Shown one piece after another: positions 53,554 through 60,777 of a DNA stretch of 64,000 bases. A model generated the notes under the pieces. That model saw only the letters and a list, made by a program, of their open reading frames with translations, had not been told where the DNA came from and ran no database searches. Position 1 is the first letter of the stretch, and each line of letters starts with the position of its first letter. The translations under genes and the position numbers were made by a program. Where the stretch lies: contig CAVPOM010000007.1 of NCBI GenBank assembly GCA_963707025.1, forward strand, positions 320,001-384,000, given 5' to 3'. The stretch comes from an uncultured Verrucomicrobiae bacterium (GTDB taxonomy: Bacteria; Verrucomicrobiota; Verrucomicrobiia; Limisphaerales; Palsa-1400).

Positions 53554-54753
53554 ATGAAACTTGAATTTGACCCGATTGAATCGGTGGTGGCCGAGTTGCG
53601 CCGGGGACGGATGGTGGTGGTGGTGGACGATGCCGATCGGGAGAACGAAGGGGACCTGATCATGGCGGCCGAATGCGTCACCCCGGCGGCGGTCAATTTC
53701 ATGGCCAAGCACGGGCGCGGTCTCATCTGTGTGCCCACCACTTACGAACGGCTCAAGCAGTTGGGCATCGAACAAATGGTCACGCAGAGCGCGGACAATT
53801 TCCGCACCGATTTCCAGGTCAGCGTGGACGCGGCCCAGGGCATCGCCACGGGCATCAGCGCGGCGGACCGGGCCAGGACCATCAAGGTCATGGCCAACCC
53901 GACGGCCGTGCCGGACGATTTGGCCCAGCCCGGCCATGTCTTTCCGCTGCGGGCCAAGCCGGGCGGGGTGCTGCAACGGGCCGGCCACACCGAAGCGACA
54001 GTGGATCTGGTCAAGCTGGCGGGAGCGCGGCCCATGGGGGTGTGTTGCGAGATCATGAGCGATGACGGCTCCATGGCCCGATTGCCCGAATTGAAACGAT
54101 TTGCCCGCGCCCACAAACTCAAGATTTGCACGGTCGAAGACCTCATCCATTACCGCCGGGCGCGGGAGAAACTGGTGCAGCACCTGGAAGTGGTGAAGAT
54201 GCCGACCGCCTACGGAGACTTTGAATTGCATCTTTATGTTTCCCAGACCGACGGCCAGCATCACCTGGCGCTGGTCTGCGGCCAGGTGGCGGGGAAGAAA
54301 AATGTCCTGGTGCGGGTGCATAGCGAATGTCTGACCGGGGATGTCTTCGGCTCGCGGCGCTGTGATTGCGGGCCGCAACTCCACCAGGCCATGCGGCAGA
54401 TCGCGGAGGCGGGGCGCGGGGTCATTGTCTATATGCGGCAAGAGGGCCGGGGCATTGGCCTGCCCTCCAAGATCAAGGCTTACAAGTTGCAGGAGCGCGG
54501 CTACGACACGGTGGAGGCCAATCTCAAACTGGGCTACGGCAAGGACTTGCGCGAGTATGGATTGGGGGCGCAAATCCTGGTGGATCTGGGGTTGAAAACC
54601 ATCTGCCTGCTGACCAACAATCCCAAAAAAGTCGTCGGCCTGGAAGGTTACGGCCTGGAAATCGTCAAGCAGCTTCCCATCAAGGCCGGCGCCAACCGCC
54701 ATAACCGAAAATATCTCCGCACCAAGCGGGACAAGCTGGGGCATCTCCTGTGA
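53554..54753 (+). CDS. ribBA: Bifunctional DHBP synthase / GTP cyclohydrolase II
   Basis: [48 protein letters not shown]. Confidence 0.97.
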
Positions 54754-55319: not shown

Positions 55320-55739
55320 ATGAAAGTTGTGTTCGACACTAATGTGTTGGTCGCGGCGGCACGATCCCGGCACGGAGCCTCGCATGCGTTGCTCTCGCGC
55401 TTGCCCGACCCTTGCTTTTAGCCGGTGATCTCCAACTCCCTTTTCTTCGAATATCGTGCCGTCCTCCTCCGTGAGGAGAATCTGCTCCAGCGTCCAGCCT
55501 CTCAGGCTGAGGGTTTTCTCGATTACCTTCTCGCGGCTGGCGATCTACAGGAGGTCTTCTTCCTCTGGCGACCCTTCTTGCCGGACCCGGATGACGATCT
55601 TATTCTTGAACTGGCAGTTGCGGCCGGTTGCAGCTATATTGTGACGCACAATCTCCGGGATTTCCGGGGAATGGAAAGATTTGGAATCGAAGCGGTTACC
55701 CCGTCCGATTTCCTGAAACTGATTGGGGAAAAAACATGA
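55320..55739 (+). pseudogene. PIN-domain toxin with an in-frame TAG at 55419-55421
   Basis: MKVVFDTNVLVAA...F*PVIS...EY...DPDDDLILELAV....IVT.N.RDF in one frame. Confidence 0.8.
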
Positions 55740-56264: not shown

Positions 56265-56582
56265 TCACTCAACCTGGAGCCGCGCCTGCAACGCCGCCCG
56301 GGTCAATTGTCCGGCGGTTTCACTCCGCCGCCGGCGGTAATTCTCCAACTGACCCTCCATTTGGCCGTCCAACTCGGTCTTGTGGTCGTGGTAATAGGAC
56401 AAGGCCGCGTGGAGCTGGGCCAGCGAGAGATGAGGATGGGCCGCGTGCATTTCCTCCGCGTCCCAGTCGTATGCGGCGTGGTCCATGGCGACTTCAATCA
56501 CCTTCACATTGCTGTCCGCGATCCAGGCCACTCCGCGCTCGTCCAGCCGGATATGGGTAATGGGTTCAACGACTAACATCAT
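56265..56582 (-). CDS. DUF433-domain protein (antitoxin-like)
   Basis: I...G...I....V.V..V......EE....HPHLSLAQ.HAAL.YY. Confidence 0.82.
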   Translation of the reverse strand: MMLVVEPITHIRLDERGVAWIADSNVKVIEVAMDHAAYDWDAEEMHAAHPHLSLAQLHAALSYYHDHKTELDGQMEGQLENYRRRRSETAGQLTRAALQARLQVE

Positions 56583-56722
56583 CCCATTGTAGCCGCTTTC
56601 CCATGGCTGGCAAGCGATTGTGCGGCAGTTGAAACAGCCGGGCGCATCCATCTTTGCCTCCCAAAACAACCGCGGAGAACACAGCGCGGCCGGCCGCCCC
56701 GCCAAAATCCCGGAACTTTCCG

Positions 56723-56816: not shown

Positions 56817-56843
56817 CCATCACTCCATCACTCCATCACTCCA
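56817..56843. repeat. CCATCACT octamer tandem repeat
   Basis: Three exact units, same unit as at 14385. Confidence 0.75.
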
Positions 56844-57016
56844 GAATCCTTCAATACTCTACCAACTTACTGTACTTTATGATTCCCTGCGCATTCCCTG
56901 TCCTCCGCAGCTTTCAGCGAAGGAGAATGAGCCTTTCTGTGGAGAACCGTTCCAAGATACTGTCCATGAACAATTTACATATAATACGGAGCTTCCAAGG
57001 TCAAACCAGGTCAAAC

Positions 57017-58974
57017 GTTGCGCCAGTGAAGTTGGTTGGAACGCGGGTGAAAGTCCCGCCCGTCGAATTAGGCTGTTCACGACGGAACACGACCTCAACA
57101 GCGCCGCCGCGAGGCGGGGTTGGAAGCTGAGGGAGATGAACAGACGGGCCGTAATGAAAATGAACCACATCCAATGAGCCTCGATAAGTTTAGAACCGGA
57201 GACAAGCCGAGCCGCTGTTTGACCGGCGAAGGCCGCAGGGAGGAGGCAGGGCAACAGTCAGAGCCTTCTCAACGCTCCGGCGGGGTCGGCGTGGACGGCA
57301 CGTCTGGAAGTTCAACCAAGGTAAGCTGGGAGAACTCCGGCGGCGGGCGGCCAGCCCAACCGCCCGCGCAAGCTGGCAAGACCAGTCAGGCGAGCGGCCC
57401 TGCCGGAGAAGTCGGAGTTCCTCATAGTAGCGTGGACTTGTTTGCGCTCCAGGCGGATTTCCGCCGGGAGTTGCGCGAGCGAACGCAAAGGGGGAACACT
57501 TGCTCAATGCGTGGAGGCGAAGCGAAGGATGCGGGGATGGCCGGGGCGACCCGGATAGCAACCCCGGAGAAAGTTCGGCAGCTTCAAATCGCGCTCTATC
57601 GGAAAGCCAAAGCAGAGCCGAAGTATCGGTTCTGGAGCCTGTATGGGGAATTGCTGCGCAAGGACGTGCTCGAAACCGCCTTGGCAGCGCAACAGCGCAA
57701 CGGCGGGGCCGCGGGAGTGGACGGACAGAGTATGGAGTCCATCACCGCCGACCCGGCCCTGCGCCAGCAATGGCTCGACCGCCTGCAAGCAGAACTCAAA
57801 GCCAAGACGTATCGGGCCAGCCCGGTGCGGCGGGTGATGATTCCCAAGAGCAGCGGAGGGGAACGGCCGTTGGGCATCCCGACGGTCAAGGACCGGGTGG
57901 TGCAAACGGCGGTGTATCTGGTGCTGATGCCGATCTTGGAGGCGGACTTTCATCCGCGCTCCTACGGCTTTCGGCCCAAACGCCGGGCACACCAAGCCAT
58001 TGCGGAAATCCAACAAGCAGTGCAGCAAGGCTACGTGGAAATCATCAACGCGGACCTGACGAAATATTTCGACACGATTCCGCACCGGGAACTGATGAAG
58101 GCCGTGGCCCGGCGGGTCAGCGACGGCAGCGTGCTGCGGCTCCTCAAGAGCTGGCTGCGCGCCCCGGTCGCGGAGGAAGACCAGGACGGCACCAAGCGAG
58201 TGATCCCCAACCGGCGCGGCACGCCGCAAGGCGGGGTCATCTCGCCGCTGCTGGCCAACCTCTACCTCAACCCGCTGGATCACGGGGTGAACGAGAAAAC
58301 CTCCGGCCAAGCCCGCATGGTGCGCTACGCCGATGACTTTGTCATCGCGTGCGCGGCGGGGTGCGGCGGAGGGCTGATAGCGCGGCTCAAGAAATGGCTT
58401 CGAGCCAAAGGGCTGACCCTCAACGAAGTCAAAACCCGAATTGTGAACATTCGCAAGGAAGGGATCAACTTCCTGGGCTTCAACCTGACCTGGCGCAAGT
58501 CCTTTGGAGGGCGCGGCTACCTGCACGTTCAACCCAGCCAGAAAAGCCGGGGGCCCTGCGCGAGAAACTGGGCGGCATCCTCAACCACTGGACGCAGGGG
58601 CGTCCGATACAGGAGGTGGTCAAAGAGGTCAACCAAGTCTTGCGCGGATGGGCGGGCTACTTCCACTACGGCAACAGCGTCTCGGTGATGAACCGGATGA
58701 AACACTACAGCCAAAACCGCTTTCGGCGCTGGCTGTGGCGCAAACACGGTTGCCGCCGCAGCCTGTGGGAACACTACGTTCCCGAGCAGTTGCACCAGCG
58801 TTATGGACTCTATGAACTGCCGACCACGGCGAAGTGGAAGGCGGCCCGATGAATGAGTTCGGAGAGCCGAATATGGGAAATCCGTCCGTTCGGTTCGATG
58901 AGGGGCGAAGTGGCAGCGCGAGACTGACAACTGCGGTCAGTTCAATCCGCCTCCTTCCACTTCGCCTACTCTAC
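57017..58974 (+). mobile_element. Group II intron (ribozyme plus RT/maturase ORF)
   Basis: Domain V gagccgaatatgggaaatccgtccgttcggttc near 58864-58896; domain VI and 3' end ctactctac; EBS1 loop gtttgac (57217-57223) complementary to the 5' exon gtcaaac. Confidence 0.9.
57537..58852 (+). CDS. ltrA: Group II intron reverse transcriptase/maturase without endonuclease domain, frameshift in the G run near 58548
   Basis: RPLGIPTVKDR, SYGFRP, GTPQGGVISPLLAN, RYADD, FLGF; domain X VN..LRGWAGYF in the next frame. Confidence 0.92.
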
Positions 58975-59285
58975 CAGGTCAAACCATATTCATGAACCTT
59001 GACCATCCCCAACACCCCAAGACGGAAAAGCTCAGTTACTCTATCATTTTACTATAGATTAAGTGTCTCGTGCGGCAAACCAGCTCCCAATTCCCGGTTA
59101 ATCTCATTTCTGACATGACCCAAAATCCGGCCCTCTTTCTGGCGCTGCCGGACGGGAAAGGCAGGGTCCCGGCCCGCCGGGACTGCCCGCCGCCGGACAT
59201 TGGCAGAAGAAGCAACGTCGTGCTGCGGTCGCGCAATTTTCGGGGATGGTTGTTTCCCGCGCCTTGTTTACGGCTAACGATTGGT

Positions 59286-60451
59286 TTAGGCAGGCGGCGG
59301 CAGGACTGGGCTTTGCGGCGGCAGCCCATAGGCGGCGCGGGTTGGGGCAAACGCCTTGATGAATTCCGGATCGCTCAAGCTGTAGGAACGCGGATCATCG
59401 AACAAGGCCTGCACCGCGTCGGAGTGCCTGAGGTTGCCGCTGTCGCTGGCCCAAGTCATCCACCAGCACCATTTGGGCTGCTGGGCCAGGACAGCCAGCG
59501 TCGGGGGCGGCCCCACTTCGGCCAGGGTGATGGGCTTGCCGTTGGCCAGCTTGAGCAAGTCCTCGTAGAAAGACTGTTTGAAGTCGCTGCCATAGACATC
59601 CAAGGCGGCAATATCAACGTACTGAGAGCCGGGAAAACATTCGGCGAACTGCAAGGAGGGCGGGTTGGCCCTGTCAACACTCCAAATCCAGATGAGATTG
59701 TTGAGTTTGTGGTGATTGACCAGCCGGTCGTAGATTTGGATGTACAGGTCTTTGGTTCCCTTGATGCCCTTTGCCGGGTCGGCCCGGCGTCCGCCCCGCC
59801 AAAACCATTGGCCGTTCATTTCATGGTAGGGCCGCCACAACACCGGGATGTGCGCGTCCTGAAGCTGTTTGAGGAAACCGGCGATGACGTCCACCTGGGC
59901 GCACCAATGCTGGAACAGATCGGTCCCGGGCGTCGTCACATCCTGCCACTGCGCATCGGTCAGCCGGCCCTGCACACTGGCGAGCAGCGGGGCCGGCCCG
60001 CCTCCGCGTTGGTGGCGGCGGCGGCGCGTCCGCGTCTGGGCGGTTGGAAGGTCACCGGTTCATCGGCGGTTGGAGGCACGGCGTGCCAGCACAGGGCGAT
60101 GATCGAGCCATTGGCAAACTGCCGTTTGACCTCGGCGATCATGTCGGGCCGGGAGGTGTAGGCGTCTTTTCGGCCGGGAGAGTCGAATCCGAAATCCTGG
60201 CCAAAGATGACCGGGACTTTATGGTAGGCGCGGGCGGCGCCTTGGGTGGAGGCGTCCTTGGTGGCCGGGAAGTTGTGCTGGCCGGTCAGGATGTGGTTGC
60301 CGGATATGCTGTAGATAAAGTTGAGGAGGGCCCGGGCTTCCGGGGTGGCGTTTGGATTGACGGGCGGCAGGGGAGCATCGGACCCGCGGGCCAGGGTTGC
60401 GGCGCAGAGCGCGGCCGCCAAAAGCCAGGATGGGGTGCCATTAAGTTTCAC
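59286..60451 (-). CDS. Glycoside hydrolase family 26 (beta-mannanase-like), frameshift near 59980
   Basis: PVNPNATPEA..L, ILTGQH, WH; WRPYHEMNG.WFW, PG..YVD...DVY, LAEVG. Confidence 0.88.
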
Positions 60452-60777
60452 AGCCTGAATTTCCTTTTTGCGGTGAAGGCGGAAGGATGCGGCGTTTTGT
60501 TGTCTGCCAGGCCTGGCCGCTCCCGGCAACAGACATCGGACAACTTGTCGCTTATAGGAAAACCAGCCCCAGATCTATGTGGGGATTCGAGGCATTTGGC
60601 GCAGGGGTCAGGCACGGCAGCAGCCTGTTGCGCCACGATAAGAATGTCAATTGACAAACAGGAAACGACCCGTGACGCCGGGATCATCGGTCCATTGGCC
60701 ATCCACGACGAAGCGGAATTCGCACCTGCCAGGCCTGAGCGCCAAGTCCAGCAGCCAGCGCCCCCTTGCGCAAGGCT

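Follow-up and report, generated by a model that had tools for sequence, protein, structure and literature searches.

A 64,000-nucleotide (nt) stretch of contig CAVPOM010000007.1 from an uncultured soil Verrucomicrobiae bacterium (hereafter the window; G000:C7:320001-384000 in the 6.96-Mb, 18-contig genome G000) contains a 1,958-nt group II intron inserted in a tandem repeat of decamer units. This intron is very probably active, or was until very recently, as an endonuclease-less, IIB-like element (Rfam D1D4-6 type) that homes into decamer arrays under the guidance of its exon-binding sites (EBSs). The mechanism would be ordinary EBS-guided retrohoming. What appears to be new is the target, a dispersed array with a 10-bp period that is read over two units, together with the apparent covariation between the two guides and the repeat unit among genera and a conserved noncanonical 5' end.

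The region from 56996 to 58985 reads cc-AAGGTCAAAC-CAGGTCAAAC, followed by the intron (GTTGCG...CTCTAC) and by CAGGTCAAAC-cat. The original prediction, which was made from the letters of the window, had placed a group II intron in a decamer tandem repeat at this locus and had proposed an Rfam search as a check. This search returned two matches above their cut-offs, i.e., RF02005 for D1-D4 at 57050-57295 (62.2 bits; cut-off, 49) and RF00029 for D5/D6 at 58862-58974 (42.6 bits; cut-off, 40), and repeat units lie on both sides of the intron. Empty paralogous sites of the genome read GGTCAAAC/CAT and define the ends of the inserted DNA, leaving a 1-base (C) ambiguity. A shift of the 5' splice site by one base to the right was ruled out, because its product (AAACG+AT) matches no empty site. 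The boundaries at 57017 and 58974 are therefore supported by Rfam, by the empty sites, and by the covariation of EBS1 with the exon described below. The upstream flank had been misread: its first unit, given as 11 letters (caaggtcaaac), is the decamer AAGGTCAAAC (56997-57006), one base off the other two units (CAGGTCAAAC). The parts of the locus, including the intron-binding sites (IBSs) in the exons and the reverse transcriptase (RT) open reading frame (ORF), are as follows.

56997..57016, plus strand: 5' exon, two decamer units (AAGGTCAAAC and CAGGTCAAAC)
57003-57006, plus strand: IBS2, AAAC (exon positions -14 to -11)
57010-57016, plus strand: IBS1, GTCAAAC (exon positions -7 to -1)
57017..58974, plus strand: group II intron, 1,958 nt (1,959 nt in sister copies with one more G)
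57017..57022, plus strand: 5' end, GUUGCG, one U more than the GUGCG of relatives
57050..57295, plus strand: domain 1 core (Rfam RF02005, group-II-D1D4-6)
57188..57191, plus strand: EBS2, GUUU, in a 13-nt asymmetric internal loop of D1 just upstream of the EBS1 hairpin
57211..57227, plus strand: EBS1 hairpin, GCCG-CUGUUUGAC-CGGC, with EBS1 (GUUUGAC) at 57217-57223
57537..58852, plus strand: RT-maturase ORF, 438 amino acids in intact copies and frameshifted in the window copy
58864..58896, plus strand: domain 5 hairpin, 33 nt, with the AGC triad at 58865-58867 and a 2-nt bulge
58900..58971, plus strand: domain 6, with a single predicted bulged branch-point A at 58968, 7 nt from the 3' end
58975..58984, plus strand: 3' exon, third decamer unit (CAGGTCAAAC), the first base of which (C) is common to all 16 genomic copies
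58985..59004, plus strand: continuation of the composite repeat (CAT, A/T-rich spacer, inverted CCTTGACC), the same sequence being found after most arrays

The hallmarks of a mobile group II intron are present, i.e., D5, D6 with a bulged A, an EBS1-IBS1 pairing that ends at the 5' splice site, an AY-type 3' end (...CUAC), and an RT with a maturase (X) domain encoded in domain 4. The EBS1 hairpin stands where the RF02005 model places the EBS1 stem-loop, and the loop letters (gtttgac between gccg and cggc) are complementary to the last seven exon bases, as originally noted; they covary with the exon in homologues. The fold of 58862-58974 reaches -50 kcal/mol (z = -4.2), and none of 200 shuffled sequences was as stable. 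In the window, 11 occurrences of the decamer (up to one mismatch) were counted where 3.7 +/- 2.1 were expected, and none of 100 shuffles reached this count; the genome-wide site counts given below are the stronger test against chance.

We found 16 full-length copies of the intron in G000, which vary at 7 of 1,959 alignment columns. Fourteen of these follow runs of two to four (N)GGTCAAAC units and are always cut at GTCAAAC/C. A fifteenth (C4:331259) lies inside a CCAAATCAAG array, after GCCAAAT, which forms six of seven pairs with EBS1 counting G-U (hand count), and the last one (C11:46161) comes after a lone GTCAAAC, outside any array. Array units are found on both sides of the intron at three loci, including the window. 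Homing into a dispersed simple repeat by way of EBS pairing, as originally proposed, is borne out by the 14 copies in GGTCAAAC arrays and by the fifteenth in another decamer array. When arrays were defined strictly (at least two units, the last one followed by C), the genome-wide count called for in the original prediction gave 45 arrays in G000, of which 14 are filled and 31 empty.

The choice among these sites follows the two guide sequences. EBS1 (GUUUGAC) pairs with the last seven exon bases at all seven positions. EBS2 (GUUU), spotted as a second variable patch when the intron was aligned with homologues of other genomes, pairs with AAAC at exon positions -14 to -11, in the preceding repeat unit. 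Because EBS2 reads the same four letters of the preceding unit, a 10-bp spacing of the units is needed. For a site census, the introns were removed in silico and all 1,427 GTCAAAC sites on both strands were considered. Of the sites with C at +1 that also had AAAC at -14 to -11, 12 of 41 were filled, compared with 3 of 494 sites with C at +1 and no AAAC (two of the three have AAAG, and one is the lone site) and none of the 892 other GTCAAAC sites; the difference between 12/41 and 3/1,386 (all other sites) is significant (Fisher p = 2e-17). A spacing census of junctions with C at +1 and a previous unit matching at least six of seven letters gave a similar contrast: unit junctions 10 bp apart were filled in 14 of 49 cases and those 9 bp apart in 0 of 25 (Fisher p = 0.0017). 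All 16 copies have C at position +1. By our own base-composition estimate, the 12 specified target bases would occur by chance about 0.4 times per genome, against about 40 real sites, and thus target sites exist only because of the arrays. The intron has the EBS2-IBS2 pairing upstream of IBS1 that marks IIB-like introns (classes B, D, E, F, and CL); it is 4 bp long, covaries, and predicts filling. The role of EBS2 in mobility was left open by Nagy et al. (PMC3753933), and the contrast between filled and empty junctions at 10- and 9-bp spacing directly shows, at the genomic level, that mobility depends on an EBS2 of 4 bp.

A protein-guided scan covering one genome per species identified introns whose proteins are 85 to 86% identical in other Verrucomicrobial metagenome-assembled genomes (MAGs), and further relatives at 66%, at 57% (five copies in one genome), and at 53 to 55%, including Akkermansia records. 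The first 404 bases of the intron were found by DNA search in 10 of 40 relatives (11 of 41 counting G000). The targets and guides of the closest homologues are as follows.

G020, four copies: cagTCGCACccgGTCGCAC-type arrays; EBS1 GUGUGAC with IBS1 GTCGCAC (7/7 counting one G-U in three copies, 6/7 in one); EBS2 GUGC with GCAC (4/4 in three copies, 3/4 in one)
G019: ...GGTCAAACtgaATCAAAC; EBS1 GUUUGAU with ATCAAAC (7/7); EBS2 GUUU with AAAC (4/4)
G014, six copies with two EBS1 variants: GTCAAAGtgaATCAAAC or ATCAAGC; EBS1 GUUUGAU or GGUUGAU with ATCAAAC or ATCAAGC (7/7 in two copies, 6/7 in four); EBS2 CUUU with AAAG (4/4 in five of the six copies, one of them counting G-U; the sixth, at a non-array site, 2/4)
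G003: AATCAAGCcaaATCAAGA; EBS1 CCAUGAU; EBS2 GCUU with AAGC (4/4)
G004: five ATAATCGTGC-like decamers; copy truncated
G016: GGTCAAGGtcaGTCAAGG; copy internally deleted; EBS2 ACUU (3/4 with IBS2)

The EBS1-IBS1 pairing covaries in G019, G020, G014, L022, L023, and L029, and the IBS2 pairing is complete (4/4) in 10 of the 14 rows of our pairing table that give an EBS2. Judging from these sequences, EBS1 and EBS2 both follow the array unit as it varies among related Verrucomicrobial genomes. Homing guided by EBS pairing, as originally proposed, is thus supported both by the dependence of filling on the pairings and by the covariation of EBS1 with the array unit in other genomes. In the comparison of flanks that had been proposed as a further check, the homologues in G020, G019, G014 (apart from one copy at a non-array site), G003, G004, and G016 and those of a Geobacteraceae genome (G072, described below) lie in arrays, whereas L022 and the L147-type relatives lie outside obvious arrays. 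In L022 (the 66% relative), EBS1 (CUGCCUG) pairs at all seven positions with CGGGCAG, and a shifted EBS2 pairs with up to seven exon bases (hand alignment). In the 57% relatives (L023-L027), EBS1 ACCCGAA faces TTCGGGT and EBS2 CCGAAAU faces ATTTCGG, i.e., two similar adjacent words. A contig from a wetland RNA library carries a 95%-similar intron start joined to CCAATCAAGG-CCAATCAAGG-CCAATTAAGG, i.e., a (CCAATCAAGG)n array, with DNA carry-over being possible. We also observed derivatives of GUUGCG introns that are ORF-less or internally deleted (L098 in G020, L102 in G003, and L103 in G016). The 683-nt and 691-nt forms keep D1 (RF02005) and D5/D6 (RF00029), lie in arrays, and are candidate nonautonomous copies mobilized in trans; the 452-nt form is more degraded.

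In this intron, an extra U turns the GUGYG consensus of group II 5' ends into GUUGCG. A single motif deviates, and the intron need not be excluded from group II on that account. A pattern search with GTTGCGCC across 17 loci (from G000, G003, G004, G014, G016, G019, G020, and the L022 MAG) gave a GTTGCG start at all 17 5' ends, which were selected by that motif. An independent homology alignment gave GUUGCG in all six aligned introns, and the atypical 5' end read from the window was thereby confirmed. The next relatives (53 to 57% identity in their intron-encoded protein [IEP]) start with GUGCG (L023-L027 and L029) or GAGCG (L028). Because EBS1 keeps the same loop register in the GUUGCG introns and in these relatives, which do not have the extra U, the latter is best explained as a derived, conserved one-base insertion and not as a mis-set boundary. 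Among the papers listed in a search of open-access text, we found no mention of GUUGCG in group II introns. The conserved GUUGCG represents a natural variant of a nearly invariant catalytic motif.

The ORF of the window copy matches RVT_1 (E = 1e-38) and GIIM (E = 3e-16) in different frames, and the intact protein of a sister copy matches NCBIfam TIGR04416 with 382 bits (cut-off, 300). Pfam matches of the intact 438-amino-acid protein are confined to RVT_1 and GIIM; the RT therefore has no endonuclease (D/En) region, in agreement with the original reading of an ORF that is itself frameshifted in the window. The nearest solved structure is the class C GsI-IIC RT (E = 1.6e-60). The frameshift site is a G-run at 58549-58553 that accounts for one of the seven variable columns; the run has five Gs in 9 of the 16 copies, including the window copy, and six Gs (open frame) in the other 7. 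A short-read contig of DNA run X1, probably from the source sample, has the extra G of the open frame, and the GH26 glycoside hydrolase gene beside the intron (59286-60529, minus strand) is likewise split, into the two overlapping ORFs given here.

59960-60529, minus strand: N-terminal part of the GH26 protein
59286-59975, minus strand: C-terminal part, separated from the former by a frameshift that is possibly an assembly indel

In view of the X1 contig and the split GH26 gene, the window copy may owe its frameshift to a homopolymer error in the assembly.

The arrays themselves are intergenic. By a crude gene call based on GC content at third codon positions, 43 of the 45 strict arrays lie outside ORFs, and the nearest downstream gene is on the array's strand for 26 of the 35 arrays with a called gene. 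Pfam searches of 20 downstream ORFs gave no match for 3 and unrelated ordinary genes for 17, including those for DUF1501, ThiF, MgsA, a fucosidase, an arabinofuranosidase, ABC-F, PrmC, FtsJ, and an epimerase. Rather than standing alone, each array is one module of a composite intergenic element with the order TGCATT repeats, C-rich stretch, GGTCAAAC units, CAT and a T-run, inverted CCTTGACC, and ATCACTCC repeats. Empty arrays of the same family read ...GGTCAAACCnGGTCAAAC/CATTTTTTcaaCCTTGACCatgccc(ATCACTCC)n. The exact two-unit pattern was found in 7 of 41 related genomes, all of one family (reversed control, 0 or 1 match). These include G002 and G023 (89% and 95% complete), where the intron query gave no match. 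Together with the 31 empty arrays of G000, these genomes indicate that the arrays are independent of the intron. A Tandem Repeats Finder census of short intergenic tandem families in G000 yielded AAGATT (141), AAAATGC (60), ACTCCATC (44), and AACGGGGTGT (20). The present results make the composite short-repeat elements of these genomes worth attention.

Several further features of the composite element were observed. At 56818-56846 of the window, there are three to four repeats of the ATCACTCC octamer, the same octamer family that follows most GGTCAAAC arrays elsewhere. Many GGTCAAAC arrays have, 250 to 450 nt upstream and in the same orientation, a multicopy module of about 150 nt. This module starts with TTGACA-N16-TGcTAATCT and continues with GC-rich hairpins (GCGGGAGC...GCUCCCGC, then UUUUG); there are 27 nhmmer matches, and the strong copies (G000 C13:75749-75896 and about 15 more) are outside the window. 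Rfam assigned no family to this module (the best match was a subthreshold RsmW on the other strand; E = 0.15), and a promoter scan did not accept its TTGACA-N16-TAATCT. The module may be a small RNA, or a dispersed promoter with a leader; in the case of a promoter, the array and the intron would be transcribed together. A conserved 16-codon mini-ORF (MWKTLTCKVLLSHLDV, preceded by GAGGG) stands between two GGTCAAAC arrays at at least five loci (e.g., on C7 about 110 nt upstream of the intron at 414182, at C13:76153-76264, and at C18:613648-613759; introns-removed coordinates).

These data are compatible with the following course of events. The intron RNA would be transcribed with intergenic host sequence and spliced with the help of the RT-maturase, and the lariat ribonucleoprotein would then reverse-splice into DNA, with EBS1 GUUUGAC on the GTCAAAC of one unit, EBS2 GUUU on the AAAC 10 bp upstream, and C at +1. 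Since the protein lacks an endonuclease, cDNA synthesis would probably be primed by nascent DNA at replication forks. Splicing would restore the array, so that insertions would cost the host little.

Two accounts that dispense with homing into preexisting targets were weighed against this. The copies could have multiplied by duplication or recombination of intron-bearing host repeats rather than by retrohoming into each array, and some flanks do bear traces of shared ancestry: the upstream flanks of several copies have modules of 60 to 330 nt in common, the flanks of the window copy and of C3:117502 are 85 to 86% similar on both sides, and in one pair (C4:375642 and C6:312861) a 440-nt upstream flank is 99.8% identical. 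This account is nonetheless very improbable as a general one, because the introns differ at 7 of 1,959 columns whereas the shared flank modules are only 74 to 92% identical where alignable, most downstream flanks are unrelated, the genes downstream of the copies are unrelated housekeeping genes, and filling follows the EBS registers (14/49 versus 0/25), which duplication would not produce. Near-identical introns within divergent flanks point to recent separate insertions and not to duplication of large segments; the pair on C4 and C6 may be an exception. It is scarcely credible that the arrays were made by the intron itself, as target-site duplications or as repair scars of insertion and loss. 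Such an origin might be suspected from the IBS1 sequence inside every array unit and from the units on both sides of the intron at three loci, including the window, but group II reverse splicing makes no target duplication, and arrays stand empty in G000 (31 of them) and in G002 and G023, where the intron was not found. G000 also has many other short tandem families unrelated to the intron, such as the AAGATT and AAAATGC repeats.

A third account would add to base pairing rather than replace it. The array might also be recognized as a structure or via a bound host protein (e.g., a repeat that is slipped or single-stranded at the fork, or a factor that binds the array), as class C introns recognize hairpins. 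Perfect sites are filled in only 12 of 41 cases, the array habit is found in two separate subclades with unrelated unit sequences and the same period of about 10 bp, the protein without an endonuclease probably needs single-stranded DNA at forks, and in G072 all nine copies are co-oriented with replication if the terminus lies opposite dnaA. We nevertheless regard such additional recognition as unlikely, given that one copy (C11:46161) sits at a lone GTCAAAC without an array, that L022 and the L147-type relatives are outside obvious arrays, and that the EBS registers alone account for the contrast between 10- and 9-bp spacing.

A number of observations weigh against EBS-guided homing by an active intron. 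Among the sequencing-run contigs searched, none carried the spliced junction 57016/58975, no lariat or spliced exon junction was seen, and no contig skipped 57017-58974; this evidence comes from assembled contigs, and intron-internal joints in RNA run X15 had sides of less than 30 letters and were not used. Both genes that flank the intron in the window are on the opposite strand, which bears on the source of its transcription. The window copy and eight others are frameshifted in the assembly, and the window copy may be nonautonomous. As for the guides, EBS1 of G003 forms only five of seven pairs (hand count), the second G014 variant has a G.G or A.G mismatch at position -2, two filled sites in G000 have AAAG where AAAC is expected, and EBS2 is only 4 bp long. 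Class E and F introns could dispense with EBS2-IBS2 in self-splicing in vitro (PMC3753933). No D1 column covaried consistently with +1 among the relatives, and EBS3, the partner of the first 3' exon base in IIB-like introns, was not located; a candidate column (G in most introns and A in G014) failed in G003, L023, and L029. Replication-strand bias in G000 is weak: on the strand that carries the intron, GC skew is positive for 11 of the 16 copies, and among the arrays for 9 of 14 filled and 11 of 31 empty ones.

If EBS-guided homing into arrays is accepted, it represents base-pair homing aimed at a generic, multicopy, and harmless target, a family of intergenic decamer arrays, and array targeting explains the presence of 16 copies of an endonuclease-less intron in one genome. 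The homologues provide a natural series in which EBS1 and EBS2 track changes of the repeat unit across genera. Three kinds of target specificity are given for bacterial group II introns in a 2015 review (PMC4424553): homing sites, terminators, and attC. None of the titles or abstracts listed in our searches of open-access text describes homing into short tandem repeats. We tentatively suggest that array homing, with EBS1 and EBS2 on successive units, might be a distinct and recurrent strategy of endonuclease-less IIB-like introns, represented by the Verrucomicrobial GUUGCG lineage and by Ge.ur.I1-like introns, and a fourth mode next to unique homing sites, terminators, and attC, in which guides and host units would coevolve and the array, perhaps slipped or single-stranded at forks, would promote invasion.

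Elsewhere in the window, a full-length match to Rfam V_AS9 (Vibrio antisense RNA AS9; 63.8 bits; cut-off, 50) was found at 53657-53760 on the minus strand, which is unexpected in a Verrucomicrobial genome. To the left of the intron are a PIN_3-domain ORF (55425-55739, plus strand) and a DUF433 ORF (56265-56705, minus strand), which are likely toxin-antitoxin-type genes.

An IEP tree of 33 proteins supplied the RT phylogeny called for in the original prediction. It sets the intron apart from the relatives of about 40% identity that are preceded by inverted repeats (the class C habit), which form a separate clade (support, 100/100); references of classes A, B, D, E, ML, and CL are absent from the tree, and no class was assigned. 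The intron belongs to a Verrucomicrobial clade (100/99) that is weakly (82/73) sister to Geobacteraceae introns matching RF02005. A larger clade (95/95) comprises the Verrucomicrobial and RF02005 Geobacteraceae introns, RF02003-type introns, and the G072 family. A second, different group II intron of G000 (L017; C15:111169-111571), with 66% DNA identity over 400 nt, encodes a protein that groups with Gemmataceae and Pirellulales introns and the G072 family.

The closest known parallel is Ge.ur.I1 of Geobacter uraniireducens (class F, IIB-like; Simon et al. 2008; Nagy et al. 2013, PMC3753933), which likewise has an RT-X protein without an endonuclease and is multicopy in noncoding DNA. Class F in the sense of Simon et al. 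2008 is marked by an IEP that groups with those of Ge.ur.I1, So.us.I2, and P.th.I2. The monophyly of this class has been disputed (PMC3552965), and Table S2 of that paper lists no Verrucomicrobial full-length intron. The 5.1-Mb Geobacteraceae genome G072 carries nine introns (eight of 2,073 nt and one of 2,081 nt) with an IEP identity of 47% to the window intron. All nine are in ATTCGTGTNN decamer arrays, as aaCATTCGTGTTTATTCGTGTCATTCG/TGGCTAAC; in two of them the intron is one unit earlier and the array resumes after it, as in the window. These are probably the published Ge.ur.I1, because the 2,073-nt length (Table S2 of PMC3552965) and the exon words of Nagy et al. match. These words are AUUCG and CGUGU, and alternative 5' splice sites 9 and 19 nt upstream arise from repeated IBS motifs (PMC3753933). 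The published data on Ge.ur.I1 contain the array pattern without naming it; there, the repeats are treated as alternative splice sites and not as a homing strategy. Six G072 copies are on the plus strand at 1.44 to 2.40 Mb and three on the minus strand at 3.39 to 4.81 Mb. The genome starts at dnaA, and if the terminus lies opposite dnaA and the origin, all nine would be co-oriented with fork movement, as expected for an endonuclease-less intron entering the lagging-strand template (as described for RmInt1; PMC8914252). In contrast to the window intron, the G072 introns start with GUACG, encode FADD instead of YADD, have a D1 below the RF02005 cut-off, and have IBS2 and IBS1 contiguous within one period, whereas a 3-nt gap separates them in the window. 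The intron protein shares the 95/95 clade with the Ge.ur.I1-like G072 protein and is not its sister, in a tree without class A, B, D, E, ML, and CL references. Array homing is apparently present in at least two separate branches; the Geobacteraceae relatives L147, L150-L152, and L155 lie outside obvious arrays, and thus not all members of the wider clade have this habit.

RmInt1 of Sinorhizobium meliloti (class D, IIB3) also lacks an endonuclease and reportedly homes into a multicopy element under the guidance of EBS1, EBS2, and EBS3, entering the lagging-strand template. Its target is one site in the insertion sequence ISRm2011-2, with a longer EBS2, and that of the window intron is a short tandem array. 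Class D maturases are marked by a C-terminal extension specific to the class. Class C introns (IIC; e.g., B.h.I1, GsI-IIC, and S.ma.I2) resemble the window intron in being endonuclease-less and intergenic and in using a dispersed generic motif (terminators and attC). They recognize a DNA hairpin and have no EBS2 and a short IBS1 (PMC4424553 and PMC1702495). The window intron differs from them in all these respects, with no inverted repeat before its site, an EBS1 of 7 bp, and an EBS2; class C membership, which is marked by a hairpin or terminator before the site, no EBS2, and an IBS1 of 3 to 4 nt, was therefore rejected. The introns of Thermosynechococcus elongatus (CL/IIB1; Mohr et al. 2010, PMC2882425) are comparable in that one family has proliferated with EBS divergence. 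There, the change of EBS has led to many unrelated sites, whereas the family described here keeps to one kind of target, and its EBS tracks the repeat unit.

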